Positions 45,675 through 64,000 of a stretch of 64,000 nucleotides of DNA are shown here, piece by piece. The stretch comes from Flavobacteriales bacterium (GTDB lineage Bacteria > Bacteroidota > Bacteroidia > Flavobacteriales_F > PHOS-HE28). Numbering within the stretch: the first letter of the stretch is position 1; each line of letters starts with the position of its first letter. The notes beneath the pieces are model-generated. The model had not been told where the DNA came from, searched no databases, and saw only the letters and a program-made list of their open reading frames with translations. The DNA lies in NCBI GenBank assembly GCA_035441065.1, contig DAORNP010000001.1:16300-80299 (forward strand), read 5' to 3'. The translations under genes were made by a program, and so were the position numbers.

Positions 45675-45906
45675 GTGGCGAAGATAGGCGGGGCCCGAAG
45701 CTTGAGGGCCCCCCGGGAACCCGTGACTAGCCAACGTTCGGTCCGAAAGATGGTGGTACAGAGACATCACTTTGAAGTCTGGTGCGATATCCTCAGGGTA
45801 GAGAGCGAAAGGCACGATGACATGCTGAGCGAGACGCTTGCGTAGATCAGAATGCGATTCCCTGTTCTATCTTCGAGCAGCCCCGAAAAACCGACACTGT
45901 CGCACC

Positions 45907-47472: not shown

Positions 47473-47518
47473 ATGGGGGTTAATTGTGGTGGCTGGAGGC
47501 ATAGTTTTGCCGCCAATC

Positions 47519-48466
47519 ATGACCAAACGCATCCTCGTTATCGGCAGCTCAGGCCAGATCGGCACCGAGCTCGTGGAAGGGCTGCGCGCCCGATTCGGAA
47601 ATGAGAATGTAGTGGCCTCGGACATCAAGGAGCCCCAAGTGGCGCAGAACGGTCCTTTCGCCATGGTCGATGCCATGGATCGCCGCGGCATCGAGCGCAT
47701 CATCGACAAGCACGGCATCACCGAGGTCTATCTGCTTGCGGCATTATTGAGCGCTACCGCCGAGAAGGATCCCGCTTTCGCGTGGAAACTGAACATGGAG
47801 AGCCTCTTCATCGTGCTGGAACTTGCGCGAGAAGGGAAATTGAAGCGCGTGTATTGGCCCAGCAGCATCGCTGTTTTCGGCCCCACCACCCCGAAGGACG
47901 GCACGCCGCAGCACACCATCGCCGAGCCCACCACGGTTTACGGCATCAGCAAGCTGGCAGGCGAAGGTTGGTGCCAGTACTACCACAAGCGCTTTGGTGT
48001 GGATGTGCGCAGCATCCGCTACCCCGGCCTCATCGGCTGGAAGAGCGCGCCCGGCGGCGGCACCACCGACTACGCTGTCCACATCTTCCACGAAGCGATC
48101 AAGCACGGCAAGTACACCAGCTTCCTCGGGCCGAAGAGCACCTTACCGATGATGTACATGCCCGACGCCATCCGCGCCACCATCGACTTGATGGAAGCGC
48201 CAGCCGAACAGGTAAAGGTGCGTAACAGCTACAACCTCGCCGGCTTCAGCTTCGACCCCGAGCAGATCGCGGCTGAAGTGAGGCGCCACATTCCCGGCTT
48301 CACCATCGATTACGCGCCAGATCACCGCCAGGCCATCGCCGACAGCTGGCCGCGCAGCATAGACGATAGCGCCGCCCGCGCCGATTGGGGCTGGAAGCCG
48401 CAGTACGACCTGAGCGGCATGGTGGACGACATGATGGTGAACCTGAAGAGGTTGATTGGAGGTTGA
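47519..48466 (+). CDS. NAD-dependent epimerase/dehydratase (TDH-like), right-arm copy; carries a 66-bp divergent patch (12 nt differences) relative to the left copy.
   Basis: ATG verified at 47519. ...QVAQNGPFAMVDAMD... here versus ...QVAQDGPFVLVDAMD... in the left arm. Confidence 0.75.
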   Translation: MTKRILVIGSSGQIGTELVEGLRARFGNENVVASDIKEPQVAQNGPFAMVDAMDRRGIERIIDKHGITEVYLLAALLSATAEKDPAFAWKLNMESLFIVLELAREGKLKRVYWPSSIAVFGPTTPKDGTPQHTIAEPTTVYGISKLAGEGWCQYYHKRFGVDVRSIRYPGLIGWKSAPGGGTTDYAVHIFHEAIKHGKYTSFLGPKSTLPMMYMPDAIRATIDLMEAPAEQVKVRNSYNLAGFSFDPEQIAAEVRRHIPGFTIDYAPDHRQAIADSWPRSIDDSAARADWGWKPQYDLSGMVDDMMVNLKRLIGG

Positions 48467-48558
48467 TTGCATTCGGCATTGGACAATCCGGGCGAAGCGA
48501 AGGGATGCAACCTTCTACCCCTCGCCAGCGTTTCGCGCCTCGCGAAGCCCAACACGCC

Positions 48559-49431
48559 ATGTTCCGACAATTCTCACTGCTGATCATGCTGCTCATCGCC
48601 GGTCGCGTTGCCGCCCTGGCACAGGACACCCTGAACGTGGTGGACGAAATGGGCCGAAAGCAGGGCTATTGGAAGGTGCTGGCGCCGAAAGCGGAGAAGC
48701 CCGAGTACAACGATGGCCAGCTGATCGAAGAGGGCCGCTACAGCAACAGCAAGCGCGTGGGCACGTGGAAGCGCTATTGGCCCAACGGCAATGTGATGAG
48801 CGAGATCAACTACCAGATGGGCCGTCCCAGGGGCGATTATCGCACCTATTACCCGACCGGGAAAGTGGAGGAGCAGGGCACTTGGGACCTGGACCGCAAC
48901 ACGGGTAAGTTCCAGCGCTGGCATCCGAACGGAAAACTCGCGCAGGACTTCATCTTCAATGGATACGGCGTGCGCGATGGCGAGCAGAAGTACTACCACG
49001 AGAACGGGCAGCTCGCCGTGGCGGTGAACGTTGAGGAGGGCAAGGAAGACGGAACGTTGAAGCGTTACGATACCAATGGCCAGGTCACGCAAGTGGCGCA
49101 GTTCAACGACGGCGTGATCAACGAAGCGAACAGCAAGTGGATCAAGCCCGTGCCCAAGGCCGATGACGTGAAGGTGGACCCGAAGGCCGAGGCCGCACCT
49201 GCTCCAGCACCCACCGAGCGCACCAACGCCATGGTATTCCGCGAGAACGGCTACAACACGCTTTACGACAAGCAGCTCCGCCTCTCGCAGCAGGGCGAAT
49301 TCAAGGATGGCCGCCTGTGGGACGGCAAGCGCTACGAGTACGACAGCGATGGCTTCCTGAAACGGATCAAGATCTTCAAGCAGGGCCGCTATCTGGGCGA
49401 TGCCGTGATCACCGAGGAGGACCTGAAGTAG
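48559..49431 (+). CDS. MORN-variant/YwqK-like repeat protein, right-arm copy.
   Basis: ATG verified at 48559. Identical translation. Confidence 0.6.
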   Translation: MFRQFSLLIMLLIAGRVAALAQDTLNVVDEMGRKQGYWKVLAPKAEKPEYNDGQLIEEGRYSNSKRVGTWKRYWPNGNVMSEINYQMGRPRGDYRTYYPTGKVEEQGTWDLDRNTGKFQRWHPNGKLAQDFIFNGYGVRDGEQKYYHENGQLAVAVNVEEGKEDGTLKRYDTNGQVTQVAQFNDGVINEANSKWIKPVPKADDVKVDPKAEAAPAPAPTERTNAMVFRENGYNTLYDKQLRLSQQGEFKDGRLWDGKRYEYDSDGFLKRIKIFKQGRYLGDAVITEEDLK

Positions 49432-49482
49432 CCCTTGCGCGCATGGGCGCCCGGTTATATTCGGCGCTCAATCGCTTCACGC

Positions 49483-50178
49483 ATGAACAAGGTGGTGGCC
49501 GGGCCCGATGCGGCGCTCGATGGCCTGCAGGACAACATGACGCTCATGGTCGGCGGCTTCGGGCTGTGCGGCATCCCGGAGAACCTGATCGCGGCCATGG
49601 TGCGCCGCGGCACCAAGGGGCTCACGTGCATCAGCAACAACGCGGGCGTCGATGACTTCGGACTTGGGCTGTTGCTTCAGACGCGGCAGATCAAGAAGAT
49701 GATCAGCAGCTATGTGGGCGAGAACGATGAGTTCGAGCGCCAGATGCTCAGCGGCGAATTGGAAGTGGAGCTGATCCCACAAGGCACCTTGGCCGAGCGC
49801 TGCCGCGCCGGTGGCGCTGGCATCCCCGCGTTCTTCACCCCGGCGGGCTATGGCACCGAGGTGGGCGAAGGCAAGGAGGCGCGCGAATTCAACGGCAAGA
49901 TGCACGTGCTGGAGAGCTGGCTCCGCGCCGACTTCGCATTGGTGAAGGCCTGGAAGGGCGATCGTTTCGGCAACCTCGTGTACAAGCGCACGGCGCGCAA
50001 CTTCAACCCCATGATGGCCATGGCGGGCAAGGTCACCGTAGCCGAGGTGGAGCACCTGGTGGAACCCGGCGAGCTCGATCCGGATGAGATTCACACGCCG
50101 GGCATCTTCGTGCAGCGCATCTTCCAGGGCGGCGGCTACGAGAAGCGCATCGAGCAGCGCACGGTGCGCAAACGCTAG
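49483..50178 (+). CDS. scoA: Succinyl-CoA:3-ketoacid (acetoacetate) CoA-transferase subunit A, full copy; straddles the right end of the inverted repeat at 49682.
   Basis: [36 protein letters not shown]...[12 protein letters not shown]...[33 protein letters not shown] verified at 49483; TAG at 50176..50178. Confidence 0.85.
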
Positions 50179-50180
50179 GC

Positions 50181-52001
50181 ATGCTGTCCGGCTCGCACAT
50201 CAGCCGGAATGATGGTGTCGCGATGGCCCTGGCTGCGGCGCTCTTCGGCGTGTACCTCGGGGTGCGTGCCATCCATCTGCCGTTGATCCAGGATGAGGCC
50301 AACTCATTCTGGTGGTACGTGGCCTCCGGTCGATTCCTTCCGCTGGATTCACATCTCGATGCCGGCAACCACCACCTGAGCAGCTTCTTCGGCTGGCTCG
50401 GATACTCGCTCTTCGGCGCTGAACCCATAGCGCTGCGCTTCGGCAGCTTGCTCGCCTATGCCCTTTATGCAGCCACGCTAGCTCACCTCGCACGGTACGT
50501 CCGGTCAGGCTGGATACGATGGTGCTGCTTCCTTGCACTCCTCACATGCCCCTTCCTGCATGAGTATTTCGCCCTGTTCAGGGGCTATGGCCTCGCCGTG
50601 GCCTTTTTCGGGCTGGCCGTGCTCCAATCTGTTATTCTGATAGAGGGCCGTAAGCCAATCAACGCGGTTTGGCTCATCGCGGCGGCAACCATGGCCGCGC
50701 TCGCAAATCTGTCCATGCTGCCTCTTTGCTTGGTCATGGTAGCAGTGGCGGCGATCCTCGGCATGCACGGCGGATTCGTTCCTGCCCGGGCTGCCCATCG
50801 AATTGGGATCGCTGCCGCAGCCCTCGGGTCATTGGCGATATTCGTCCTGCTGGCCTTCGTGTCGATGGCATTGAAGGGCCAAGGACTGCTTTACCACGGT
50901 GCCGGCAACGGCCTGCTCGCGGTGAGCGTGAATAGCCTGTGCCAAGCGATCTTCGGATGGAGCGCCTCGAAGCTCCCGATTGTTTGTGCCGCTATGGCCA
51001 TCGGTGGTTGGTTGGTTGGATTGAACGCTCTTTATCGCAAGCAGCCGGGATCAGGTGCTCTGGTTGTCGTTGGTGCATTGCTTGGAACCGAGTGCATCAT
51101 CCGCATCGCGCTGCAGGAGGTACTCGGCGTCAACTATCCGCAGGATAGGGCCGCTTTCCAGATGCTCATCTTGTTCCTGCTGCTTGCCTCATTCGCTATC
51201 GATGAACTCGGAGTGCGCTCAGCATGGGCGAAGGCTTCGGCAGTGGTGTTCTTGGCGCTGCCCATCATCACGCTCTCCAGCCTGAACGCAGAAGTGGCCA
51301 TGAACAATGGAGAGCCTGCCGTTCCGAGGCGATTCATCCATCGGCTTGCACAGCTCCAACTCGAATTGGGGCGACCTGTAATTACGGCTGTTGGCAGCAA
51401 TTTGCGGAGCGGGGTCTCCTTCGCGCAATTCCGCGACGCCGCCTTCATTCAAGAGTCAGAAGACCAGCGATTCGACCATCCAGGACAGGATTTCCGCATC
51501 GTGCGCGATACGGAGCTTCACACGGTACAGGACGGGTATCATGCGGTCGATAGCAGTACAGCCGGTTGGGTCCATCTGCTCAAGCGCGATACACCGTTGA
51601 GCCTCGACCTTGCCTTTGATTCGACCTTGACTGCTCCGATCGAAATGGGCGAGGGCTTCCGGAACATCCTTGAGCAGAGCCCGGGGCGCTTCGGCAACCG
51701 CGCGCTATATGTTCGAGTCACGGGGAATCTGCACCGGAGGCTTGACCATGGGGAATTGCACTTCGTCGTTCACGACGATTACAGAGATGGTGCTGCTTAC
51801 GAGGACGGGACCGACTTAAGGAAGCTGAGGTTGCAATGGGCTGGCGAACCCTTCGATATCATGCGTCGGCTGCCCGCCGCTGAAGTGGTCGAAGGAACGC
51901 GGTGCTTCTTCTGGAATACGACATCGATGCCGGTCCAGATGACTGATGTGCGGATCCGGGTCTATGTCACTGGACAGCCTGACCCAATCTCCGAATCTTG
52001 A
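50181..52001 (+). CDS. Polytopic membrane glycosyltransferase, GT-C fold, PMT/ArnT-like (paralog A of a 4-member family in this window).
   Basis: ~12 TM N-terminal domain with loop-1 motif PLIQDEANSFWWYV...DAGNHHLSSFFGWLGYSLFG, resembling the PMT/GT39 DE-loop (FDEVHFGKF...DVHPPL). ~250-aa soluble C-terminal domain. Start is 2 nt after the scoA stop. Confidence 0.55.
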   Translation: MLSGSHISRNDGVAMALAAALFGVYLGVRAIHLPLIQDEANSFWWYVASGRFLPLDSHLDAGNHHLSSFFGWLGYSLFGAEPIALRFGSLLAYALYAATLAHLARYVRSGWIRWCCFLALLTCPFLHEYFALFRGYGLAVAFFGLAVLQSVILIEGRKPINAVWLIAAATMAALANLSMLPLCLVMVAVAAILGMHGGFVPARAAHRIGIAAAALGSLAIFVLLAFVSMALKGQGLLYHGAGNGLLAVSVNSLCQAIFGWSASKLPIVCAAMAIGGWLVGLNALYRKQPGSGALVVVGALLGTECIIRIALQEVLGVNYPQDRAAFQMLILFLLLASFAIDELGVRSAWAKASAVVFLALPIITLSSLNAEVAMNNGEPAVPRRFIHRLAQLQLELGRPVITAVGSNLRSGVSFAQFRDAAFIQESEDQRFDHPGQDFRIVRDTELHTVQDGYHAVDSSTAGWVHLLKRDTPLSLDLAFDSTLTAPIEMGEGFRNILEQSPGRFGNRALYVRVTGNLHRRLDHGELHFVVHDDYRDGAAYEDGTDLRKLRLQWAGEPFDIMRRLPAAEVVEGTRCFFWNTTSMPVQMTDVRIRVYVTGQPDPISES

Positions 52002-52028
52002 GGCTCACATGAGCAGCACACGCATCTG

Positions 52029-53750
52029 TTGGTCGCGCTGGCGTTCCTGTACCTGCTGTTGCGCGCTGCACTCGTCCCCCTCGCCCACGACGAGGCCGCC
52101 ACCTTCCAGACCTATGTGCTCACGGGCAATTACCTCCCCTACCTCGCGCATTGGGATGCCGGCAACCATCTGCTGGTAACCGCCGTGGCGCGCGGCAGCT
52201 ACTTGCTCTTCGGCGATGGGCCGCTTGCGCTGCGCGGTTTCCCGGTGCTCTGTTTCTTATTGTGGGCCTGGTATGCGCTGCGCTTCGCACTGCTCTTGGA
52301 GGAGCGCATGATCCGCTGCGCGCTATTCACAGCGCTCCTGCTCATGCCCTTCGTGGCCGAGTTCTTCGCGCTTTTCAGAGGGTATGGTCCTTCGCTCGCA
52401 TTCCTGCTCATGGCATTGTTCCATGCCGTTCGTTTCACTGCGGAGGCGCGCCGCACAGACCTCGTCCTCTTGCTCGTCGCCATGCTGCTCGCTTGCGCGG
52501 CATCGCTCACGCTGATCATGTTCTGGTGCATGCTGCTCGCCGGAAGCGCCGTGGTGCTGCTCCGGAACAGGCGGCGCGATGCATCCGCTTGGGCGGCCTT
52601 GCTGATCATCGGCGCGCTGCCCCTGCTCCTCGCGGCCCACTACTCCTTCGAGCTCTCGGCGCGCGGGCTGCTGTATTACGGCACGGGGGATGGGCTGCTC
52701 TCGGGTACACTGGCCTCCTTGTCCAAGTGGGTGTTGGGCATCGGCGATGGTTCCATTGGCGCGTTGATCATGCTCTTGCCCATTCCCATCGGAGCCTGGG
52801 CCTTGCGTGCGGGTCGGCATCGTATGGTGATCAGTGGCCTGATGCTGCTCATCCTCGGGGAATTGCTGGGGCGCTTCATCCTTGCCGAAGCTTTCGGTGT
52901 GCTGTACCCGCAGGATCGCACAGCCATGCATCTGGTGCCTGTGCTCCTGCTGCTCTTCGCGTTCTCGGTTTCCGCGCTGACCAACGAACATGCTTGGTGG
53001 CCATGGGCCTCAGTCATCCTGTTCGTCCTGCCATTGCGAACGGCGATGGGCCTCAACTTCGATCGCACCTCATTCTGGCCGGAACAAGCCATCCCCGCAG
53101 GCGTATTCGAGGCGGTGATGGATCGTCAGGCGCAACTCACCCGGCCGTTGGTCATCGGCGGCTACCACCAGCATGCGGCGGTTTGGGCCTATGGCAGCAT
53201 GCGCCGCAATGGGTCCTTGCCCATGCTCGACGTGAATGGTTTCCCGCAGCCCACCTGTGACCTGATGCTCATCGATCGCAGCTATTTCCAGGCGCCTCCG
53301 GGGTTCAGCGTGATCACGGAAGCGCCGCACGGCAAGCTCACGCTCATGCAACGCGATCCGCCTTTGGTCACCACCATCGTGATGGACACCGCGCTCATCG
53401 TTCAACCAACCGATGCGGAATTCATCGAGCTCCTGGTCGTCGAGGGCGTCCCGTGGTTCGCTGAAGAATCCCTCATCGAGGTGGATGCGGTGCTCCGGAG
53501 CGTGTCGGCACCCTTGGACGTTCGCCTGGTGGTTGAGGTGAAGGCCGCCGATGGCACAAGCCTGCATTACGATGTGGTGGATGCGCAGCGCGTGCGCGCG
53601 CAATGGCAAGGCGAGGATTGGCGCGAGATCCGGCGCGCGCCCGCTCATCCCAACGCGTCCCGATTGGTGTGCTACCTCTGGAATCCGCAACGGCATGTCT
53701 TCAGCGCCGACCATGTGCAGGTGAGGGCGCATCGTGTCCTCGACCCATGA
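52029..53750 (+). CDS. GT-C PMT/ArnT-like membrane glycosyltransferase paralog B (TTG start per ORF track; N-terminus ~8 aa shorter than paralogs).
   Basis: PLAHDEAATFQTYV...DAGNHLLVTAVARGSYLLFG; same architecture as paralog A. Confidence 0.5.
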   Translation: MVALAFLYLLLRAALVPLAHDEAATFQTYVLTGNYLPYLAHWDAGNHLLVTAVARGSYLLFGDGPLALRGFPVLCFLLWAWYALRFALLLEERMIRCALFTALLLMPFVAEFFALFRGYGPSLAFLLMALFHAVRFTAEARRTDLVLLLVAMLLACAASLTLIMFWCMLLAGSAVVLLRNRRRDASAWAALLIIGALPLLLAAHYSFELSARGLLYYGTGDGLLSGTLASLSKWVLGIGDGSIGALIMLLPIPIGAWALRAGRHRMVISGLMLLILGELLGRFILAEAFGVLYPQDRTAMHLVPVLLLLFAFSVSALTNEHAWWPWASVILFVLPLRTAMGLNFDRTSFWPEQAIPAGVFEAVMDRQAQLTRPLVIGGYHQHAAVWAYGSMRRNGSLPMLDVNGFPQPTCDLMLIDRSYFQAPPGFSVITEAPHGKLTLMQRDPPLVTTIVMDTALIVQPTDAEFIELLVVEGVPWFAEESLIEVDAVLRSVSAPLDVRLVVEVKAADGTSLHYDVVDAQRVRAQWQGEDWREIRRAPAHPNASRLVCYLWNPQRHVFSADHVQVRAHRVLDP

Positions 53751-55501
53751 CGGATTCGCCAGCCTCCTCGCGCGAAGGCGTGGTCTTCTTCGGGCTTGCG
53801 GCCCTGATGCTCATGTACGTGGTGCTGCGCGCGGCGTACGTGCCTTTCGTCCACGACGAAGCCACCTCCTTCATCGCCTATGCGCAACCCGGCACCTTCC
53901 TGCCCTTCGCCTCGATGTGGGATGCGAACAACCATTTCCTCAATAGCCTATGCGGACATGCCGGATACCGTCTGTTCGGATTGCATCCGCTCGCCTTGCG
54001 CTGGGCCAGCGTACTGAGCTATGTGCTGTTCGCCTGGTGCGCATGGCACTTGGGCGAGCGCATCGGTCGGCCCATCATCCGATGGTTGCTCTGGCTGGCG
54101 TTGCTGGCCTGTCCCTTCCTGCTCGATTTCTTCTCGCTCTTCCGCGGGTACGGACCCGCCATGGCCCTGCTGCTCCTTGCTGTGTATCAGGCATCGTGCT
54201 ACCTCGAATCCCGCTCGGAGCGGAGCCTGGCGGTGAGCCTCTTGGCCATGAGCGCCGCAATGGGCTTCATGCTGGGCCTTCTTCCCCTGGCATTGGTGCT
54301 GCAGCTGGCGCTCTTCACGGCTGCCTATCGCGTGCGGCGTCACACCGTGATCGGCATCGCACTGGGATTGATTCCGCTGCTCCTGATCGCTTTGCTCGCC
54401 AAGCACATGGCCGCTCTCGGATTGCTCTACCATGGCGGCACCGACGGCTATGCCAGCACAACCATCGGCTCATTGCTCAAGTTCACGTTCGGCGTTGTTG
54501 GCGAAGGCAGGCCCCAATGGCTTGTGCTGTTCACGACGTTCTTAACGGCACTGCTTATTTGGATGCAGCGTCGTGCGGGCATACCGCATCACCTCATGCT
54601 TGTCGCGGCAATGCTCTGGGGCGAATGGGCCTTGCGCTGGTTGCTGGCGTGCACCATCGGCCTGAACTACGCCGAGGACCGCACCGCCCTGCATGTGCTC
54701 GTGCTCTTCATCTTGTTCGTCGCGTTCACCGCTGATGCATTGCGACGCCTGCATGCGGCTGCTTGGCTATTGGCAATCCCCCTGCTCGCATTGCCGCTGC
54801 GCGTGGCGTTCACGGCCAACCTCGATCGCACAGCCCTCTGGCCCGAGCAATCCATCCCCGGTCGGTTCATGGCACGCATCGAAGCGCTGGAGAAGGAACT
54901 CGATCGCCCGGCCATCGTGGGCGCGCATCGCCTGGCAACGATGCCCTTCGGACTGCAGCGCCGATTGCGGGGCGGCGAGGGCGATGCCACGGCGGCGAAC
55001 TGGCCAAACGCATTGGCCGATGCACGGATCGAAATGCTCGGCGTGCCATTCGATAACGACCAGCGCTTCGCACTTGCCGATAGCGCATCGAATGGACTCC
55101 GTTTGTATGTGCGTTCGCCCATGTGGCATTCAACCCTGCAACGCGATAGCGCATTTGCTATGGAATCGGACGGTGGCATGCGGTCCGTGGGCCTCCCGAT
55201 TCCCGCACAACTCATTCAAGCGAGCGATGTCATTGTTGATGTGAGCGGCTCCCTGCGAGCCACCAGCACGCTCGACCTGCGCGCCTGCGTAGCCGTGTAC
55301 GACAGCACTGGTGCCGTTCTTCATGTGGACCACTTGATGCTCACCACCCGGCGCGCGCTTTGGAACGGCGAACACTGGCGAACAGCATTGGCGATTCCGC
55401 GTGAGCCGCTTGCAGCGCGCGCCGAGTTCTTCCTCTGGGAGATCGGCCACGGGCCCTTCAAGCTGAGCCAAGGTCGCATGCGCGTGCATGCGATGCGTTG
55501 A
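53747..55501 (+). CDS. GT-C PMT/ArnT-like membrane glycosyltransferase paralog C.
   Basis: Start ATG 53747 overlaps the paralog-B stop (ATGA at 53747..53750). [14 protein letters not shown]...[20 protein letters not shown]. The ORF track's upstream start at 53603 is rejected as an overlap. Confidence 0.55.
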
Positions 55502-55557
55502 GTGGGCGATTCGTTGCGGTGGTTGTCGGCTTCTACATTTGGCGCAACCCAACTTGC

Positions 55558-56214
55558 ATGGCGCTCACCAAAGACCAGATGGCCAAGCGCATCGCGCGCG
55601 AGCTGAAGGATGGCTACTACGTGAACCTCGGCATCGGCATTCCCACCCTGGTGGCCAACTACATCCCAGAGGGGATCAACGTGGTGCTGCAAAGCGAGAA
55701 CGGGATCCTCGGCATGGGGCCCTTCCCTTATGAAGGCGAGGAGGACGCCGACCTGATCAATGCCGGCAAGCAGACCGTGACCCTGCTGGGCGGCAGCAGC
55801 ATCTTCGACAGCGCCACCAGCTTCGCGATGATCCGCGGGCAGCATGTGCAGCTCACGGTGCTCGGCGCCATGGAGGTGAGCGACACCGGCGACATCGCCA
55901 ACTGGATGATCCCCGGCAAGATGGTGAAGGGCATGGGCGGCGCCATGGACCTGGTGGCGAGCGCCGACAACATCATCGTGTGCATGATGCACGCCAACAA
56001 GGCCGGCGAGAGCAAGCTCTTGAAGAAATGCACCCTTCCGCTCACCGGCGTGGGCTGCGTGAAGAAAGTGGTCACCGACCTTGGCGTGTTCGACATCACC
56101 CCCGACGGCTTCAAGCTCCTGGAGCGCGCGCCCGGCGTGAGCGTGGAGGAGATCAAGGCGAAGACGGAGGGACGGCTGGTGGTGGAGGGAGAGATCAAAG
56201 AGATGAGTGTGTGA
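55558..56214 (+). CDS. scoB: Succinyl-CoA:3-ketoacid CoA-transferase subunit B.
   Basis: [37 protein letters not shown]...SENG (catalytic Glu in the SENG motif). ATG verified at 55558. Confidence 0.85.
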
Positions 56215-56223
56215 CATAGCAGC

Positions 56224-57567
56224 ATGGTCCCCAACCTACCGGACCGATTGCGCCTTTTCATCGCGCACTGCGCAGGCAACGGCCGATTCCTATGGGTGGC
56301 GTGGGCCGTTTTCTGTGGCTTCTTCAGCTGGTCCTCCATCGACTTCAACTCCAAGATTCCTTTGGAAGACTGGCGGCACGATCTGCGCGGGGACGCTTCG
56401 GGCTATTACATCTACCTGCCGGGGACCTTCCATCACGGAATGCGTGCGGCCGATATGAGCGACAGCCTTCGTGTGGTCGCGGGCCTCGGATTCACCTTGG
56501 ACCGGGAGAACGACCGCATCATTACCAAGTACACCTGTGCACCAGCCATCCTCATGCTCCCCTTTTACCTGCTGGCGGAAGCCATCGAGGGATGGGGCGT
56601 GAGCGATGGCTGGAGCCGTACGCATCATCAGACCATCGAGCTGGGCGCGGTGTTCTATTGGTCGTTGGGACTGATGCTCCTCGCCGGATCACTCATGCGG
56701 CGCCTGCCCACTGTGCCAGTGGTCGCCATACTGTGCGTGGCAGCGATCGCTTTCGGCACGAACTCCTTCTACTACGCCTTCAGGGCGCCGGCTTTCTCGC
56801 ATGTGTATTCGTTCTTCCTCGTGTGCCTGGCCATCCACGCGATCTACGTGGATCCCGGGCGGCCCATGCGGAAGGGCATGCGGTGGCTCTTCTTAATCGC
56901 CTGTGCCATGATCGTCGCGGTGCGGCCCATCGACGTGGTGGCGGCACTGGCATTGGTTGGGCTGTTGGGCATTGAGCGGCCCGGTGAACTACGGCAACCT
57001 GGCTTCTATCCGGCCGGGGTGCTGGCATGCGCGCTGGTGGCTGCGCCGCAACTCCTCTTCTGGAAGTTCGCGCATGGCCATTGGCTCGTGTACAGTTACG
57101 GGGAAGAAGGGTTCACAAACTGGGCATCGCCTTACATCAAGGAAGTGCTGATGGCACCCAGGAACGGGCTTCTTCCGCATGCCCCCGCGCTCTTCTTGTT
57201 GCCGTTGGGGCTGTGGGCGCAATGGCGCGTTGATAAGCGCGTGGCGCTCCTGTTGGCTGCGACATTCGCCATCATCCTCTATTCCTTCGCAGCATGGCAT
57301 TCCTGGGATTTCGGCTGCAGCTATGGCATGCGGCCCTTCGTGCAGTACACGCCCTTCGCGGCCCTGTTCACCTGGCCGCTATTGCACATGCTGCATGCGC
57401 GTTGGCCGCCTGTGTTCTGGTCGTTGGCCATCGTGCTCGTGTTGGTGAGTTTCGTGAATTACAGGGCCATGCTCGAATACGACGGCTGCAATCTGTGGCC
57501 CTTCTGGGATTGGCTACCCTTCGGCCGCAACCTGTGGGAGGCCTTCTTTGGCCGGTTCCCATGCTAG
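56224..57567 (+). CDS. Polytopic integral membrane protein of unknown function (possibly another GT-C-like or polymerase/ligase-like transferase).
   Basis: 447 aa, >=10 predicted hydrophobic helices, Trp/Tyr-rich loops. Immediately follows scoB and precedes the GT2 gene. Confidence 0.35.
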
Positions 57568-57625
57568 AGGCTGGTCTACTTTCGCGCCCCCTGCGCGCGA
57601 TCGTCCGCAGGGAGCCTTCCAAAGC

Positions 57626-58336
57626 ATGATCCGTACGCTTTCCATCATCATCCCCGCTTATAACGAGGAGCGCACCATCCACCTGATCCTGGACAAGGTG
57701 CGCGATGTGGTGCTTGCTCAAGGCATCCAGAAGGAGGTGGTAATCGTGAATGATGGCTCGAAGGATGGCACTGCCGCAGCGATCTCGCAATACATGGAGG
57801 CGAACCCGCAGCTTGGGATCCGATTCTATGAGCAGCCGCGCAACATGGGCAAGGGTGCCGCCATCCATCGCGGCATCCAGGAGGCCACGGGCGAGTACCT
57901 CATCGTGCAGGATGCCGACCTCGAATACGATCCGCGCGAGTACAATGACCTGCTCAGGCCCGTGCTCGAAGGGTTCGCCGACGTGGTCTTCGGCTCGCGC
58001 TTCATGGGCCACCACCCGCACCGCATCCTCTTCTTTTGGCACAGCATCGGCAACAAGTTCCTCACCTCCCTCTCCAACGCGTTCAACAATTTGAACCTGA
58101 CGGACATGGAGACCTGCTACAAGCTCATCCGCAGCGACATCGCCAAAGGACTTGTGCTGAAAGAGAAGCGCTTCGGATTCGAACCGGAGGTCACCGCCAA
58201 GCTCGCGCGGGTGAAGGGCGTCCGCATCTACGAGGTGGGTATCAGCTACTACGGCCGCACTTACGCAGAGGGCAAGAAGATCGGCTGGAAGGACGGCTTC
58301 CGCGCCATCTGGTGCATCGTGAAGTATGGGCTCTAG
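57626..58336 (+). CDS. GT2 family polyprenyl-phosphate sugar synthase (DPM1/ArnC/GtrB-like).
   Basis: [14 protein letters not shown]...[11 protein letters not shown]...[13 protein letters not shown] (DxD)...VVFGSRF...[11 protein letters not shown]: diagnostic of dolichyl/undecaprenyl-phosphate glycosyltransferases. ATG verified at 57626. Confidence 0.85.
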
Positions 58337-58340
58337 CGCA

Positions 58341-60101
58341 TCACTGCGCCTGCTGCTGATCGAGCCAGATCATGTACTCCGAATTCCGGCGCAGCGCTTC
58401 ATCAATCGACTCGTGCTTCCAGAATGCCTGCCTGCGCACCGAGGCGAACCAGGCCTCATCGCCCCGTATCAACTGGTCATAGTACTCCAGGTCCTTCTCG
58501 GCGGGAAGCACGGCACGCAGCGGCTCTGCTTCCGAAGCCTTGGCCAATGAGTCATCGGTTGCGATCACGCGATACTGGAACAAGCGCGTTCCGCGAAGCA
58601 CGATCGGCTCAGACACGGCGAGCGGCATGTCGACACCTTGAAGCCGCATCACATCACCGCGCCATTCGACCAGTTGCTGCAACATGCCCGTGCGGCTGAA
58701 GACCATGACGCCCTGCTTGTGCGTTGCGAGCAATTCAACCGCCTCCTCCGGCTTGAAGCCTTCGTGCTTGGCGCCGCCCACCACCATGGTATTCGGAAGA
58801 GCATGCAGCAGGATGTAGTAGCTGGCATCCCACGAGTGGAAGTCAAGGATCAATCCATCGCCCGCCCGCGCCTGCGCATTGATCACCGCCAACAAGGCCT
58901 CAGTGTCGTTCCCGTAGAGCCTGGGCACCACCTGCATCTCGCGGTAATGACCGAGCACAAGTCCGTCCATCGCAGTGCTCAGCGCACGTTCGCCCAATAG
59001 TTTGGTGAAATCAACCTTGCCGAACACAAAAGCGAATGGCAGGGTGACGATGATGCCCAACGGCATGATCACCCTGTGGATAGCCCGCCAGCGCAACGCG
59101 GTAAAGACGAGCGCGACGAAGGGCAGCAGGAGGATCAACCAGGTCACCAAGAAGCGATGGTGGAGCATGAGTGATCCTTCCCAGGCTTTCTTCTGGAAGA
59201 TGATGGCCATTGCGGCGAAGGGGATCAGCCAGATCCATTGCGGGCCAGTGAGCTTTCGACGGATGGCGGCAAGGAAGGTCGCAAACAGCAGCAACAGCGC
59301 GCACACCGGTGAGCTGTTCAGCACGAAGGACCAGCCGAAGAAGATCACGCGCTGGATCCGTGTGGCCTTCGTCACATCGTCGTTGATGCCCTCCTTGCCC
59401 ATGTTCCACTCGTCGTTCTGGTTCACGCTGTAAAGCGCATCGCCGAACTCGATCTGGTTGCCCACCATCCACACCGCCGGGAAGAGCATGGCAAAGGCCC
59501 AGAACACGATCGCGATGCGCCAGCCATGCAGCAGGAGCGCTACCAGCGAGAGCGCCGCGATGAGCACCCACGCCTCATAGCGCGTAGCGGCTGCGCAGGT
59601 CATGAGCAGGCCGGCAACGGCGGCGCTCCGCCACGCACGTGGCTGTCCTTGGTTCAGCGAGAGCGCGAATAGCGCCGAGGCGAGGAAGAGGCCGTAGGTG
59701 ACCTCCGAGAGCGCCTGCAAGCTGGTCCATAGCGCGATTGGGCTGAACACGTAAAGGAGCGCTGCGAACACGGCCCCTCGCCGCGAACCGAAAACCGTGA
59801 GCGTAAAGCCATACAAGGGAATGGCCGTGAGTGATGCGGCCAGCACGCTCAGGAGCTGCGGTCCCAGCGCCTTGCCAGGGAAAATGAGCATGAAGAGCGC
59901 ATTGAGGTAATGGTGCAGCGGCCCCCAGTAACCGTGCGTGATCCAGTGCGGGTCCTGCAACCATTCCAGGGCGATGTGTATCCGGCTCACAGCGTCGGCC
60001 TGCACCGTCTGGGCCCACGGCAGCATGGTCAGGCGAACGATCAGCGCCGCTGCCGCGATCAGCAGCGCGTCATTCCGGTTGGTCCTCGGAAACAGGCTCA
60101 T
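58341..60101 (-). CDS. GT-C membrane glycosyltransferase, PMT_2/ArnT (GT39/GT83)-like, with C-terminal soluble domain.
   Basis: 586 aa; N-terminal ALLIAAAALIVRLTMLPWAQTVQADAVSRIH..., multiple TM helices, then a ~200-aa hydrophilic tail. Convergent with the GT2 gene (4-nt gap). Confidence 0.45.
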   Translation of the reverse strand: MSLFPRTNRNDALLIAAAALIVRLTMLPWAQTVQADAVSRIHIALEWLQDPHWITHGYWGPLHHYLNALFMLIFPGKALGPQLLSVLAASLTAIPLYGFTLTVFGSRRGAVFAALLYVFSPIALWTSLQALSEVTYGLFLASALFALSLNQGQPRAWRSAAVAGLLMTCAAATRYEAWVLIAALSLVALLLHGWRIAIVFWAFAMLFPAVWMVGNQIEFGDALYSVNQNDEWNMGKEGINDDVTKATRIQRVIFFGWSFVLNSSPVCALLLLFATFLAAIRRKLTGPQWIWLIPFAAMAIIFQKKAWEGSLMLHHRFLVTWLILLLPFVALVFTALRWRAIHRVIMPLGIIVTLPFAFVFGKVDFTKLLGERALSTAMDGLVLGHYREMQVVPRLYGNDTEALLAVINAQARAGDGLILDFHSWDASYYILLHALPNTMVVGGAKHEGFKPEEAVELLATHKQGVMVFSRTGMLQQLVEWRGDVMRLQGVDMPLAVSEPIVLRGTRLFQYRVIATDDSLAKASEAEPLRAVLPAEKDLEYYDQLIRGDEAWFASVRRQAFWKHESIDEALRRNSEYMIWLDQQQAQ

Positions 60102-61620
60102 GCGCGTGAAGGTCTTCGATTGCGGGCACTAGTGCGCCAGCCGAGTCATACGGCGCTTCGGAGGCGCGCCTGAGAAGAAGGGTACGCGCGTGCGGGAACG
60201 CAGCGACCTCGACGAATCCGATGGGAGCCGCCGTGTCGTATTCCGACACGTAGCGGTAATCGTCGTCGGGGCGCAAGCCTTCGCGATCAAGCGTGCAAAG
60301 CCAATCGAGCCCACGCGTGGTGCGGTAATAGTTCAGGCTCGGCTCATACAGCCAGTCGATGCCCAGTTGCACGAAGCCCTCGCGGCGCCAAACGTGCTCG
60401 CGATCCGCGATCAAGGCATCCAAGGCTTCTTTGGTCTGTGAGTCGTAGCCCCATTCCCAACTATGGTGTGTGCCGAAGCGCTTGGCGAATGGCGGGACGG
60501 CCCACATACAAGCGGCGCAAGCGATCAGGATCGGCGCCACAGGATGCTTGCGCGCCCATAGCCCCAGCAACAGGATGAAGCTGAGCACGAGCGGCACCAA
60601 CAGGAAGAGCGCGAATCGCGACTTCAGGTGATCGACGCCGAAGAGCAGGTGCTGAGCATAGGCCCCCATCCCGATCAGCACTAAGGTCAGCGTCGCGATG
60701 GCCAGCCCGGCGTTCGCGTTCAGAAAACCACTTGCTCTGCTCCTTCGCAGCCCCAAGAGCACCACCACAAGCGCGATGGCCACCACTAACGTGAGGATTA
60801 CCCAAGCCGCCATCAGCCGATCGCCCTGCAGGCTCAGGGTTGGAACCATGCCGTCGATGAGGGTGGTCACGGTATCTGAATAGAAGCTCGATTTGCCGCC
60901 GAAGTCGAGCGGATTGGCCTCGCGCACACGGCGGATGGGCGTGCTCAGCGCGATGAAGGATGCTATGAGCAAGAGGCCGTTCGATTGCGCAACGGGGCGC
61001 AAGCGCTCCCAACTCCAGCGATCGGCATAGGCGCCGGCCATCGTGCAGACCGCGTAGGCACCAAGCACAGCGACATAGCCGGTGAGCAGCGCGAAATTGC
61101 TCAGGGTGGCGAGCACGCCGGCCAGGTGCATGAGCGCGAGCTGGCCGGATCCTGAACGACTGATGGCCCGACTGGCGTGGTAGATGGCCATGGCGAGGAA
61201 GCCGTAAGAGAGGCCATAGCCGCGCGCCAGCGTGAACATCTCCATGAAGTACACATTGGTGAATAGCAGCGGAAAGCCCACCACGATGAGCAACGGGTGG
61301 CAGCGCCGGATGAGCAGGGCCGTGTACACCAGATACAGTACGAGCGCCAGCAGGTTCGGCAGACGAAGGGCGAGTTCACTTGTTCCGAAGAGCGCCATGC
61401 TGCCCTTCATGGCCAGGCTGTTCAGCAGGTGGTTGTTGGTGTAGGCGGATTCATGGTTGAGCAGCTTCCCGACCGAGAGCTGCGGATAGTTCAGAAAGGT
61501 GATGGCTTCATCATGCGTGAACGATGCCGTGGCCGCACGGTGCGTGCAGAGCGCGAGGATCACTGCCGCGCACAAGACGAGGTAGGCCGTGACCCCATGA
61601 CGCTGCATCAAGGACCTCAT
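60070..61620 (-). CDS. GT-C PMT/ArnT-like membrane glycosyltransferase paralog D (fourth member of the tandem-array family, on the opposite strand).
   Basis: SFTHDEAITFLNYP...TNNHLLNSLAMKGSMALFG...FTLARGYGLSYGFLAMAIYHA aligns motif-for-motif with paralogs A-C. Start ATG 61618..61620 (MRSLMQRHG) overlaps the stop of the upstream gene (ATGA). Confidence 0.55.
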   Translation of the reverse strand: MRSLMQRHGVTAYLVLCAAVILALCTHRAATASFTHDEAITFLNYPQLSVGKLLNHESAYTNNHLLNSLAMKGSMALFGTSELALRLPNLLALVLYLVYTALLIRRCHPLLIVVGFPLLFTNVYFMEMFTLARGYGLSYGFLAMAIYHASRAISRSGSGQLALMHLAGVLATLSNFALLTGYVAVLGAYAVCTMAGAYADRWSWERLRPVAQSNGLLLIASFIALSTPIRRVREANPLDFGGKSSFYSDTVTTLIDGMVPTLSLQGDRLMAAWVILTLVVAIALVVVLLGLRRSRASGFLNANAGLAIATLTLVLIGMGAYAQHLLFGVDHLKSRFALFLLVPLVLSFILLLGLWARKHPVAPILIACAACMWAVPPFAKRFGTHHSWEWGYDSQTKEALDALIADREHVWRREGFVQLGIDWLYEPSLNYYRTTRGLDWLCTLDREGLRPDDDYRYVSEYDTAAPIGFVEVAAFPHARTLLLRRASEAPYDSAGALVPAIEDLHAHEPVSEDQPE

Positions 61621-63917
61621 CGGACGTTGCGATTCAAGGGTGCGGCATACAAGGTGTCGTCCACCGGAATATTGTTGAAGTGCAGGCCTTCGGCATCGGT
61701 GCGCCAGGCCTGTGTGGCCAATGGCCGGAAGAGCACATGCTCCACAACAGCGCGCGTGCGGTTCTGCTCCGGTCCACCGAGCATCACACGGTAGCGGCCG
61801 CTGGCACGCTTGGGGCGGAAGGGCATCGCCGCGATGGTGCGGTCGTGCAACTGCATGGGCATGGATCGCACATCCCGGAAGCCTTCCCAATCGACCTTGC
61901 CATCGGGATCGCCATGCTCGATGATCAGCCACGAGTTCACGGCATCACCATCGATGGCGCGCACCACCGCGCACAACTCGTAGGTGACTGAAGTGTCCAG
62001 TTGCGCGGCATCGAGTTCCATCAACCGGATGAACTCGCTCACCCATCCCTCGAAGGGACCGGCGGCATACGCGACTGCGGGTCGCGAATCGGAACCGGAT
62101 TCCAGCCAAAGGCCCTCTTGGCGGACCATGTGCCCGCTCGTTTCTGTGAATCGCTGCCGAAGGGCTGGCCCATCCCATGCGAACAGGTCGGCAGCGCTGA
62201 TCAGGCGCAATTCACCGGCTTCAGTGGCGCGAAGCGGGGCTCCCTTGCGCCAGAGTGAATCTTCTTCAGGTTCCAGGTCATCCCTGCTCCACAGGATCGC
62301 GAGCATCGCTGTTGGGGGAATGGCTTCGGCCACGCGCTTCTTGAAGGCCCTTGGCGCGCGAAGGGCCAGAAGCTGCCGGGCGTGCTCGTACGAGGTGCGT
62401 ATGAGGTTGCCCGCCATCAAAGGCGTTCCCGCACGGTAAGCCACGCCGTACGCCAACGCATGCAGCCGCTCGGGCGCGCCCTTTCCATATCGCTCCGAAC
62501 CGCCGTGGGGGAAAGGCAGGGGGATGACCGCCGCTGCGCCGCTGGTGCGCACGGCTTGCGCAAGCAGCTCGAGATTCGAGTTCGCTGTTCGCGCATCGAA
62601 CACATTGCGCGCATGGCCGATCGACCGTGCCATGGATGCCATCACCGGCCAGCCTTCCGCAGCATAAGAAGCCATGAGCAGTGCGAAGACCGCACCTCCG
62701 AGCACGCGTCGTTTGCGCTGCGGTGCGGCAAGCCATTGCCAGGCACGAGCCGCGCAGAACAGCAGGCACACGAAGTAGAAGGCCCATGCGAACCGGCCCG
62801 TGGATCGGAATTGCTTCAGCATGGGAAGCGCATCACCCAGTAGTTCTCCAAGCACATTCATGGCGAAGAGCAGGACCAGCGCGGCAGCGATCAATTGCAT
62901 GGCGGGCTCATCGGGGCTCAGTGCCGCACGGCCACGTTTCCGCAATCGCGCAACAAGCACCACGATCGCCGCGAGCAGCAGGAAGGGCGTTACGATGCCC
63001 AAGTAGCAGAGCGACTCCCACGCGAGGCCGCCCTCGGGCTTGAGCGGATGCACCCATGCACTCATGGGTGGTTGCGTGGAGACCAGCAGGCTCTGCCAGC
63101 GCGTGGCGTAAGCATCGGCGCCCGGTGGTGTCTCGGGCCGGTCGGGCAAGCGGTCGCTGGCATTCTCCAAGGCGAGGAACACGGCCACCGGCAGCACCGC
63201 CATTGCGCCGACGTCGATGTAGGTGCGCTTCTGCTTCAGCGGCCTCCATTCCACGAGCGCTCGCACGCCGATTGAGGAAGCCACGAAGAGCGCGCTCATC
63301 AAGCCGAGATACGGATGCGTGAGCAGCGCCAGCAGCACCAGCGCGCAGGTGAAGAAGGCCCAGACCCAGCGCTTCTTTGCATCGCCAGCGCGAAGCAACG
63401 TGTACCACGTGGCGGGGAACATCCAGCAATGCGCCAGCGCGTAATGGCCGCCCAAGCGGTACACCTGCGGCTGCAGCATGCTGATGGCAACCGCTGCCAA
63501 CGCCGCAGCCCAAGGTGCCATGCCCCAACGCCGCCCGATGGCGAAGAGCGCCCACGCACAGCCCAACGGCGCGAGCAGGAGCAACACGTTCAACACTCCG
63601 ATCTTCCAGGGCTTCAGCCAAGGCAACTGTTGAATGAGCCAAGCCAGTGGCGGATGCCCATCGGTGTAGAAGATGTGGTCGCCATAGGGATAGCCGGAGC
63701 CGTTGAAATGCAGCAGATCCCGACCATGCTCGGCATGCCACGCGTAGGTGAAGTAATTCTTCAGTCCATCACCATCGGCCGATAGCAGGACCGCATTCGC
63801 GTTCTTGAGCGGTTCGCCGAAATGCGCGAGGATTACGCCCAGCATCACTGCCGTGAGCGCCAGCCACCAGGCCCAAGCACGCTTGGCGGGTTGCGGAGCA
63901 GCACCTTGAGCGGCCAT
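61617..63917 (-). CDS. Large (~766 aa) polytopic membrane protein with C-terminal soluble domain; uncharacterised, candidate GT-C-type transferase.
   Basis: Start at MAAQGAAPQPAKRAWAWWLALTAVMLG (cat at 63915..63917; the ORF could extend to 63992). Loop motif LLSADGDGLKNYFTYAWH. Translationally coupled to paralog D. Confidence 0.35.
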   Translation of the reverse strand: MAAQGAAPQPAKRAWAWWLALTAVMLGVILAHFGEPLKNANAVLLSADGDGLKNYFTYAWHAEHGRDLLHFNGSGYPYGDHIFYTDGHPPLAWLIQQLPWLKPWKIGVLNVLLLLAPLGCAWALFAIGRRWGMAPWAAALAAVAISMLQPQVYRLGGHYALAHCWMFPATWYTLLRAGDAKKRWVWAFFTCALVLLALLTHPYLGLMSALFVASSIGVRALVEWRPLKQKRTYIDVGAMAVLPVAVFLALENASDRLPDRPETPPGADAYATRWQSLLVSTQPPMSAWVHPLKPEGGLAWESLCYLGIVTPFLLLAAIVVLVARLRKRGRAALSPDEPAMQLIAAALVLLFAMNVLGELLGDALPMLKQFRSTGRFAWAFYFVCLLFCAARAWQWLAAPQRKRRVLGGAVFALLMASYAAEGWPVMASMARSIGHARNVFDARTANSNLELLAQAVRTSGAAAVIPLPFPHGGSERYGKGAPERLHALAYGVAYRAGTPLMAGNLIRTSYEHARQLLALRAPRAFKKRVAEAIPPTAMLAILWSRDDLEPEEDSLWRKGAPLRATEAGELRLISAADLFAWDGPALRQRFTETSGHMVRQEGLWLESGSDSRPAVAYAAGPFEGWVSEFIRLMELDAAQLDTSVTYELCAVVRAIDGDAVNSWLIIEHGDPDGKVDWEGFRDVRSMPMQLHDRTIAAMPFRPKRASGRYRVMLGGPEQNRTRAVVEHVLFRPLATQAWRTDAEGLHFNNIPVDDTLYAAPLNRNVR

Positions 63918-64000
63918 TGGTATGGGATCACTTCGGCTTACCGACGACCGCCTCGCTGACCTTGCCGAAGAAGTGCTTCCACTCCCAGCCATGATCCGAC

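Follow-up and report, generated by a model that had tools for sequence, protein, structure and literature searches.

The window analyzed here is a stretch of 64,000 nucleotides (nt) from a Flavobacteriales bacterium (assembly GCA_035441065.1, contig DAORNP010000001.1), to which all coordinates refer. It contains the two genes of a 3-oxoacid CoA-transferase, scoA and scoB, and three genes for membrane glycosyltransferases (GT) that lie between them. These three are called GT-A, GT-B, and GT-C, which are gene names, while the term GT-C fold denotes a superfamily of glycosyltransferases. The split of scoAB appears to be old, tolerated, and inherited within a large, uncultured group of wastewater and freshwater Flavobacteriales, and not the freak of one genome. 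Literature searches on scoA/scoB in Flavobacteria and on GT-C/undecaprenyl-phosphate systems in Bacteroidetes brought up no account of it. An identical order of a MORN gene, scoA, GT-A, GT-B, and GT-C is found in two independent metagenomic assemblies, one from JGI (L001, 3300006417 contig) and one from Logan (L002), and the scoA-GT-scoB order is not an assembly artefact.

The scoA and scoB Genes

The scoA gene (49483..50178, + strand) encodes subunit A of the 3-oxoacid CoA-transferase with 231 amino acids (aa), and its product matches PF01144 (1.4e-77) and TIGR02429 (281.7 bits against a cut-off of 128.5). The scoB gene (55558..56214, +) encodes subunit B with 218 aa, which matches PF01144 (1.9e-50) and TIGR02428 (334.8 bits against a cut-off of 243.55). 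Both genes start with ATG, at 49483 and 55558. The ScoB translation contains the SENG motif (LQSENGILG), which we take to be the catalytic-glutamate motif of pig SCOT and the family I transferases. These scores identify scoA and scoB as genuine 3-oxoacid CoA-transferase subunits, as an earlier note on this DNA, made from the letters alone, had taken them to be. The AtoD equivalog level is missed (232 bits, with 315 needed). A glutaconate-type CoA-transferase was considered and is ruled out by the TIGR02428/TIGR02429 scores.

The canonical scoAB, pcaIJ, and atoDA operons of family I share with the window the scores of both subunits above the NCBIfam cut-offs and the SENG motif. They differ from it in two respects: in the window the subunits are parted by 5.4 kilobases (kb) of unrelated membrane-protein genes, and its scoB seems to carry a promoter box of its own.

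A gene for homogentisate 1,2-dioxygenase (PF20510) lies about 5 kb upstream of scoA; together with its neighbor it occupies 43372-44529 (-) and 45904-47472 (+). Its neighbor encodes a beta-propeller protein (DUF5122) that has a weak C-terminal sorting domain of type IX secretion. The homogentisate dioxygenase gene is consistent with a ScoAB enzyme that activates acetoacetate from tyrosine catabolism. In the JGI assembly, scoB (L001 7873-8316) has an in-frame deletion of about 216 nt between short GGC(A/G)TG(G/A)GCG repeats, which leaves 147 aa instead of 218 in a contig that is otherwise identical. The deletion may reflect a variant in the population whose ScoB is crippled, or else a collapse in assembly.

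The Three Intervening Genes

All three intervening genes lie on the same strand as scoA and scoB. GT-A (50181..52001, +) encodes a predicted GT-C-fold membrane glycosyltransferase of 606 aa from an ATG start, GT-B (52029..53750, +) a paralog of 573 aa from TTG, and GT-C (53747..55501, +) a protein of 584 aa from ATG, with about 13 transmembrane (TM) helices in residues 1-410 and a C-terminal beta-sandwich in residues 420-584. The genes are closely packed: GT-A follows scoA after a 2-nt gap and GT-B follows GT-A after 27 nt, GT-B and GT-C overlap by ATGA, and 56 nt separate the GT-C stop from scoB. The open reading frame (ORF) map and the junction sequences agree with the gene coordinates of the earlier note, which was also right about a short gap before scoB and off by one in giving it as 57 nt.

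GT-A and GT-B share 29% identity over their full length (E 6e-57), and GT-B and GT-C share 33% (E 4e-67). Similarity at this level, far beyond chance, identifies the three as full-length paralogs, and the tandem of three same-strand paralogs that the earlier note had described is thus borne out. Across 44 family members that include GT-A, GT-B, and GT-C, 25 positions are invariant, namely D37/E38 in an HDEA motif and 23 others. Since each of the three proteins keeps all 25 of these residues, all of them look functional. Pairwise identity among them is 30-34% in the membrane domains and 18-24% in the C-terminal domains, which resemble carbohydrate-binding modules (CBM). The greater divergence of the CBM-like domains suggests differing acceptor or linkage specificities on a surface glycan, which could be lipopolysaccharide, capsule, or glycoprotein.

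Compared with L001, L002, and the closest species representative, L012, GT-B lacks 10 nt at its 5' end (52010-52030), namely TCTGTCTCGG, a stretch that lies between direct repeats of TCTGT. Because of this deletion the usual ATG at 52010 is out of frame, and the gene therefore either starts at TTG 52029, which makes it ten residues shorter, or is frameshifted at its 5' end. The missing bases may reflect strain variation or a mistake in assembly.

Fold and Family of the Glycosyltransferases

GT-A, GT-B, and GT-C have no match in Pfam at E<=0.01, and an NCBIfam scan was likewise empty. A profile built from the 44 family members gave 0 matches at E<=10 against all PDB sequences, and hhalign of the family against the neighboring PMT_2 protein or its family gave a probability of 3-4%. 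None of the three proteins matches the PMT or PMT_2 models (GT39, PF02366 / PF13231), and none belongs by the NCBIfam and Pfam models to the ArnT (GT83) sequence family. Because the Pfam, NCBIfam, PDB-profile, and hhalign searches gave nothing, the assignment to the GT-C fold is made on the fold alone. An AlphaFold2 model of GT-C, computed on the family alignment, has a mean predicted local distance difference test score (pLDDT) of 91.7 and a predicted template modelling score (pTM) of 0.90. It consists of about 13 TM helices followed by a C-terminal beta-sandwich that matches jelly-roll/CBM folds; residues 1-410 hold no inserted beta domain, and the model lacks a MIR beta-trefoil domain. The model, with its polytopic membrane domain, places GT-A, GT-B, and GT-C in the GT-C fold. 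The description of these proteins as PMT/ArnT-like in the earlier note is accordingly correct for the fold and incorrect for PMT, PMT_2, or ArnT as sequence families. Residues D37 and E38 directly follow helix 8-31 (TM1) of the model; they form a conserved acidic pair that is a candidate for the catalytic aspartate of Pmt or ArnT. Given the GT-C fold and a neighboring GT2 gene whose product resembles DPM1, GtrB, and ArnC, the three enzymes would use a polyprenyl-phosphate-linked sugar on the periplasmic side.

Two groups of characterized enzymes resemble the family in structure. Yeast Pmt4 is the best structural match of the scoA-linked family, and the protein O-mannosyltransferases (GT39; yeast Pmt1/Pmt2/Pmt4) and PMT_2 (PF13231) match it at only 11-13% sequence identity. 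Pmt proteins have a MIR beta-trefoil loop domain, whereas the present family has a C-terminal jelly-roll, CBM-like domain instead. The top Foldseek matches are the mycobacterial Emb/Aft arabinosyltransferases of GT53 and its relatives (EmbB, E 1e-7), in which a carbohydrate-binding beta-sandwich in the periplasm likewise follows the GT-C membrane domain, and which likewise occur as tandem paralogs (embCAB). However, the Emb/Aft proteins measure about 1,050-1,100 aa against about 585 aa here, the template modelling (TM) scores reach only 0.36-0.40 and identity 10-13%, and their phylum and cell envelope are unlike those of the window family.

An exhaustive profile search returned 4,341 clusters at 50% identity with E<=1e-3, of which 1,390 had E<=1e-30, and nearly all were full-length at about 600 aa. 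A large family of GT-C-fold proteins with a CBM-like periplasmic domain, matched by no Pfam or NCBIfam model, is thereby defined. Its position beside scoA and a conserved GT2 resembling the polyprenyl-phosphate-sugar synthases make it recognizable, which helps annotators and points glycobiologists to a defined candidate locus for decorating surface glycans in Flavobacteriales.

Conservation of the Arrangement in Relatives

A scan for ScoA covered one genome per GTDB species, and the 80 closest loci (ScoA identity 77-96%) were sorted by tblastn, ORF extraction, and hidden Markov models (HMM). The two sco genes are adjacent, with gaps of 5-127 nt, in 47 of the 80; the gap is 0.3-1.2 kb in 8 and 1.7-5.7 kb in 13, and scoB was not found in the sequence available in the other 12. 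Loci with adjacent genes come from Saprospiraceae, Cyclobacteriaceae, Reichenbachiella, Lishizhenia, some Crocinitomicaceae, and even Planctomycetes. A member of the GT family stands right after scoA, in one to three copies, at 17 of the 80 species loci. Some belong to the clade of the window itself (L012-L017, L019, L020, L024), and the others are Fluviicola/Crocinitomicaceae metagenome-assembled genomes (MAGs), namely L023 and L088, with two copies each, L038, L046, L051, L053, L072, and L091.

A further set of 11 contexts was made up of ten homologs ever more distant from GT-C (58% to 30% identity) and one representative of the exhaustive search. A family member lies downstream of scoA in all 11, no more than 13 nt away in 10 of them, and scoB lies beyond the GT gene or genes in 10. 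There is one copy in L008, L009, L011, L093, L094, and L095, two in L005, L006/L007, L010, and L092, and three in the window, L001, and L002. The earlier note had presented the insertion as very unusual and had raised the question whether it is specific to one lineage, and it had named beforehand an arrangement commonly shared by relatives, with a known function, as an outcome that would speak against this; the synteny check, with 11 of 11 contexts and 17 of 80 species loci, found the shared arrangement, though no known function.

The surroundings of the pair vary. The cultured species Lishizhenia tianjinensis (L071) and L049 have the layout PBP1a-scoA-scoB-GT2, and in L018, L026, and L065 genes for PMT_2 or unannotated polytopic (GT-C-like) proteins lie between scoB and GT2 or after GT2. 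Genes unrelated to the family occupy the scoA/scoB junction elsewhere, namely CotH (L033), a pair that includes an arylsulfotransferase (L059), and another kind of polytopic protein (L043); the junction is generally permissive in Flavobacteriales. The scoB gene can also be detached: it lies behind an opposite-strand gene in L005, runs divergently from scoA-GT in L094, and is absent within 10 kb in L019 and L020.

A neighbor-joining tree contains a B-type clade with sequences from the window, L012, L005, L006, and L016, and a C-type clade with these same five sources and L008 and L013. GT-A pairs with L012 alone on a long branch and has no other ortholog among the loci examined, and the Fluviicola sequences form a separate clade with duplications of their own. 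Because the B and C clades are shared, the duplication that gave rise to them would be older than the separation from relatives with 88-97% ScoA identity. The tree thus speaks for an expansion that is old and recurrent and not recent. GC content across the locus is uniform, with no sign of foreign origin; no direct or inverted repeats flank the insertion, where only short paralog-derived matches occur, and no mobility genes are present at it. Recent horizontal transfer or expansion was considered and rejected on the divergence of the paralogs and the shared orthologs.

Several individual loci deserve mention. In L011 (8786-9662) the GT gene is not tight to scoA, unlike in all other relatives, and a gap of 0.9-1.2 kb without a called gene intervenes, possibly the remnant of a lost copy. 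In L016 (10587-12466), a three-copy relative, the first, B-type GT is broken up into two ORFs of 388 and 341 aa that overlap, which suggests a frameshifted or decaying copy. Two Flavobacteriales/Bacteroidota MAGs, L068 (10702-11769) and L074 (7569-8639), carry a gene for a BNR/Asp-box repeat protein after scoA, with no scoB in the downstream sequence available, and represent a further variant of the broken pair. The record L049 (CP034120.1) is labelled as the gammaproteobacterium Glaciecola amylolytica, and its ScoA and GT2 are 81% and 73% identical to those of the window; it is either a mislabelled or contaminated record or a transferred block. ScoA identities of at least 80% also occur in several MAGs that bear the labels Comamonadaceae, Luminiphilus, or Roseobacteraceae.

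Transcription Signals

Promoters of Bacteroidota reportedly use a -7 box of the form TAnnTTTG. A perfect box of this kind, TACATTTG, is located at 55534..55541 (+), 16 nt upstream of the scoB ATG and within the 56-nt spacer after GT-C. A promoter-like box that fits the relaxed form TAnnTT[TC]G, TATATTCG, lies at 49456..49463 (+), 19 nt upstream of the scoA ATG, and a box of the type TATCTTCG occurs at the same spot upstream of scoA in most clade relatives. A second relaxed box, TACTTTCG, at 57577..57584 (+), precedes the ATG of GT2 by 41 nt. No -7 box was found before GT-A, GT-B, GT-C, or the 447-aa gene that follows scoB. In relatives, TACATTTG also precedes scoB in L001 and L005 (23-24 nt from the ATG) and in L012 (52 nt from the ATG), while the variant cATCTTCG does so in L006, L007, L010, and L013. 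In L005 a gene for a 492-aa membrane protein on the opposite strand is placed between the last GT and scoB, and TACATTTG is retained.

The strict motif TAnnTTTG occurs in the whole window at the level of chance (7 sites, with 6.8 expected), so only the positions of boxes relative to gene starts are informative. The relaxed motif, which was defined after the alignments upstream of scoA had been seen, has 12 sites on both strands of the non-redundant 39 kb. Seven of the 12 fall 5-38 nt upstream of a gene start on the same strand, a location for which 3.4% of positions qualify, and these seven include the boxes of scoA, scoB, and GT2. Scans of 47000-59000 for sigma-70 promoters (2, with 3.3 expected) and for intrinsic terminators (7, with 7.5 expected) gave numbers at chance, which is unsurprising for Bacteroidota.

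The most likely transcription units in the window, judged from these boxes, would be scoA-GT-A-GT-B-GT-C, scoB with the 447-aa gene, and GT2, with read-through between them possible. The earlier note had seen no room for promoters between the genes, and this holds at the scoA-GT-A, GT-A-GT-B, and GT-B-GT-C junctions; it is weakened before scoB, where TACATTTG stands in the spacer. Its proposal of a single transcript through scoB to GT2 is weakened by the boxes before these two genes and by the detached scoB of L005, L094, L019, and L020.

Genes Downstream of scoB

The gene after scoB (56224..57567, +, ATG at 56224) encodes a 447-aa polytopic membrane protein with no Pfam match. Its family profile aligns with the broad D+A2 profile at an hhalign probability of 95%, which marks it as a probable remote relative of the GT-C-like families of the cluster, and homologs follow scoB in L009, L012, L013, L015, and L092. 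The next gene, GT2 (57626..58336, +, ATG at 57626), encodes a soluble-type protein of 236 aa (PF00535, 1.6e-31). Its nearest solved relatives are the dolichyl-phosphate-mannose (Dol-P-Man) synthase of P. furiosus (5mlz, 6e-15), GtrB sll0501 (5ekp), and ArnC. Dol-P-Man synthase, GtrB, and ArnC are all polyprenyl-phosphate sugar synthases. The top NCBIfam matches of GT2 are AglJ, PgfS, PpgS, and ArnC, all far under their equivalog cut-offs (AglJ 95 bits against 325), and by its closest characterized relatives the protein is assigned to the DPM1 / GtrB / ArnC / AglJ subgroup. It is very highly conserved: sequences from the clade are 88-91% identical to it, and those from Fluviicola, Lishizhenia, and Parvicellaceae 72-80%.

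In the two-step systems ArnC/ArnT, GtrB/GtrV, and DPM1/ALG, a GT2 enzyme makes a polyprenyl-phosphate sugar and a GT-C enzyme uses it across the membrane. The present locus, to which these systems are among the closest known, differs from them in that GtrB and ArnC have C-terminal TM helices, which its GT2 is without, and in that no GtrA-like flippase is seen in the cluster.

Three genes on the opposite strand complete the locus. The first (58341..60101, -) encodes a PMT_2-family GT-C glycosyltransferase of 586 aa (PF13231, 2.1e-08, 35 bits against a cut-off of 26.1). The second, paralog D (60070..61620, -), encodes 516 aa and is a distant member of the family of GT-A, GT-B, and GT-C, with 34% identity to GT-C over 164 aa (E 1e-13) and 91.6 bits to the A2 profile; its match to PMT_2 is below threshold (E 0.0017, 19 bits against 26.1). 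The third (61617..63992, -) encodes a DUF6311-type membrane protein of 791 aa, 76% identical to an L005 gene flagged PF19830; its homologs in relatives are DUF6311 proteins, and its family profile aligns with the broad D profile at an hhalign probability of 94%. The locus as a whole is a GT-C-rich envelope glycosylation neighborhood around one conserved GT2, in which scoAB is embedded.

Origin of the Split scoAB Pair

The explanation that we favor, with a probability of about 0.6, is that GT-C-fold genes accreted historically around their partner GT2, that one of them came to lie behind the scoA promoter and was duplicated afterwards, and that ScoAB is an ordinary CoA-transferase. The scoAB pair would then encode an ordinary heteromeric enzyme that lies within a cell-envelope neighborhood in this branch of Flavobacteriales, and the ancestral layout would have been PBP1a-scoA-scoB-GT2, as kept in Lishizhenia tianjinensis. 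[quoted passage not shown] Genes for such enzymes may have accreted at three places, namely behind GT2, between it and scoB, and at the scoA/scoB junction. A copy that landed just 3' of scoA would have no promoter of its own and would ride the scoA transcript, and the scoA-GT junction is proposed to have stayed at 2-13 nt over deep time because the GT depends on the scoA promoter. The scoB gene would have kept or gained its own promoter, and the inserted gene would then have been duplicated in tandem to yield one to three copies per lineage. On this account, an operon for a two-subunit enzyme can tolerate an interruption over very long times, and the separate scoB promoter is the apparent reason.

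Several points weigh against this explanation. The clustering of relaxed boxes before gene starts has a binomial P of about 4e-8, which is indicative only, as both the relaxed motif and some of the gene starts were post hoc choices. The spacing between the last GT and scoB is only about 4 nt in L009, L014, L017, and L093, and because of this spacing scoB must be co-transcribed in these four loci. The neighbor-joining tree, which carries no support values, does not separate one insertion event from several, and among the genes of the cluster none was recognized as a flippase for lipid-linked monosaccharides. Finally, the persistence of the scoA-GT junction amid rearranged surroundings is explained equally well by functional or regulatory selection.

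Such selection would follow from a real coupling of the two systems, in which glycosylation is co-regulated with the catabolism of ketoacids and amino acids or ScoAB supplies an acyl-CoA that modifies the glycan. The junction is kept in 11 of 11 contexts, within 13 nt in 10, despite a divergence of the GTs to 24-35% identity and rearranged flanks, and scoAB is linked to the conserved GT2 also where no GT-C gene is inserted (L071, L049). Coupling is nevertheless judged unlikely: in Saprospiraceae, Cyclobacteriaceae, and Planctomycetes, orthologs 72-97% identical to ScoA and ScoB are encoded by adjacent scoAB genes with no GTs beside them, the cluster contains no acyltransferase, unrelated genes occupy the same junction elsewhere, and scoB is detached in L005, L094, L019, and L020. 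To our knowledge, no chemistry joins a 3-oxoacid CoA-transferase to lipid-linked glycosylation. The link between acyl-CoA metabolism and glycosylation drawn in the earlier note finds no support, with unrelated genes at the same junction in other Flavobacteriales, and both this inference and that of a single operon are weak.

A recent insertion with tandem expansion, specific to this lineage and possibly horizontal, which disrupted the scoAB operon in this genome, would account for a GT-A whose ortholog, among the loci examined, is found only in the closest species representative (L012), and for copy numbers that range from one to three among relatives. It is highly improbable in view of paralogs just 29-33% identical to each other, orthologs of GT-B and GT-C in relatives at 46-76% identity, the presence of the insertion across the clade and in Fluviicola/Crocinitomicaceae, and the lack of a GC anomaly, flanking repeats, or mobility genes. 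The chance that assembly or binning has created the arrangement is close to nil: the same contig does hold a perfect palindrome of 49.7 kb and is thus partly chimeric, with a right arm that reaches scoA, yet L001 and L002, assembled independently, have the same gene order, and so do more than 10 further species on long contigs, several of which exceed 1 Mb.

The scoA-linked, Pmt4-like family and its DPM1-like GT2 might constitute a periplasmic glycosylation system of Flavobacteriales based on undecaprenyl-phosphate sugars and analogous to eukaryotic O-mannosylation, an idea that is speculative and improbable. According to a 2025 review, the mannose-first core O-glycan of Bacteroidota is made by unknown machinery, and a search for O-mannosylation homologs is advised (PMC12871550). 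Were the idea true, the family would be a candidate part of the machinery that starts or extends this glycan. Its occurrence, seen here only in part of Flavobacteriales and not throughout the phylum, weighs against it.

The Palindrome Upstream of scoA

The segment 1-24841 of the window is the exact reverse complement of 24842-49682, with arms of 24,841 nt that are 100% complementary and have no spacer, and the center of the palindrome falls between ...ggactga and tcagtcc.... This 49.7-kb palindrome is almost certainly a fold-back assembly chimera. Its left arm is cut by the window edge and its right arm runs into scoA, where its apparent end is set by the left edge of the window and is not a breakpoint. 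Every gene in 1-24841 is a mirror duplicate of one in the right arm.

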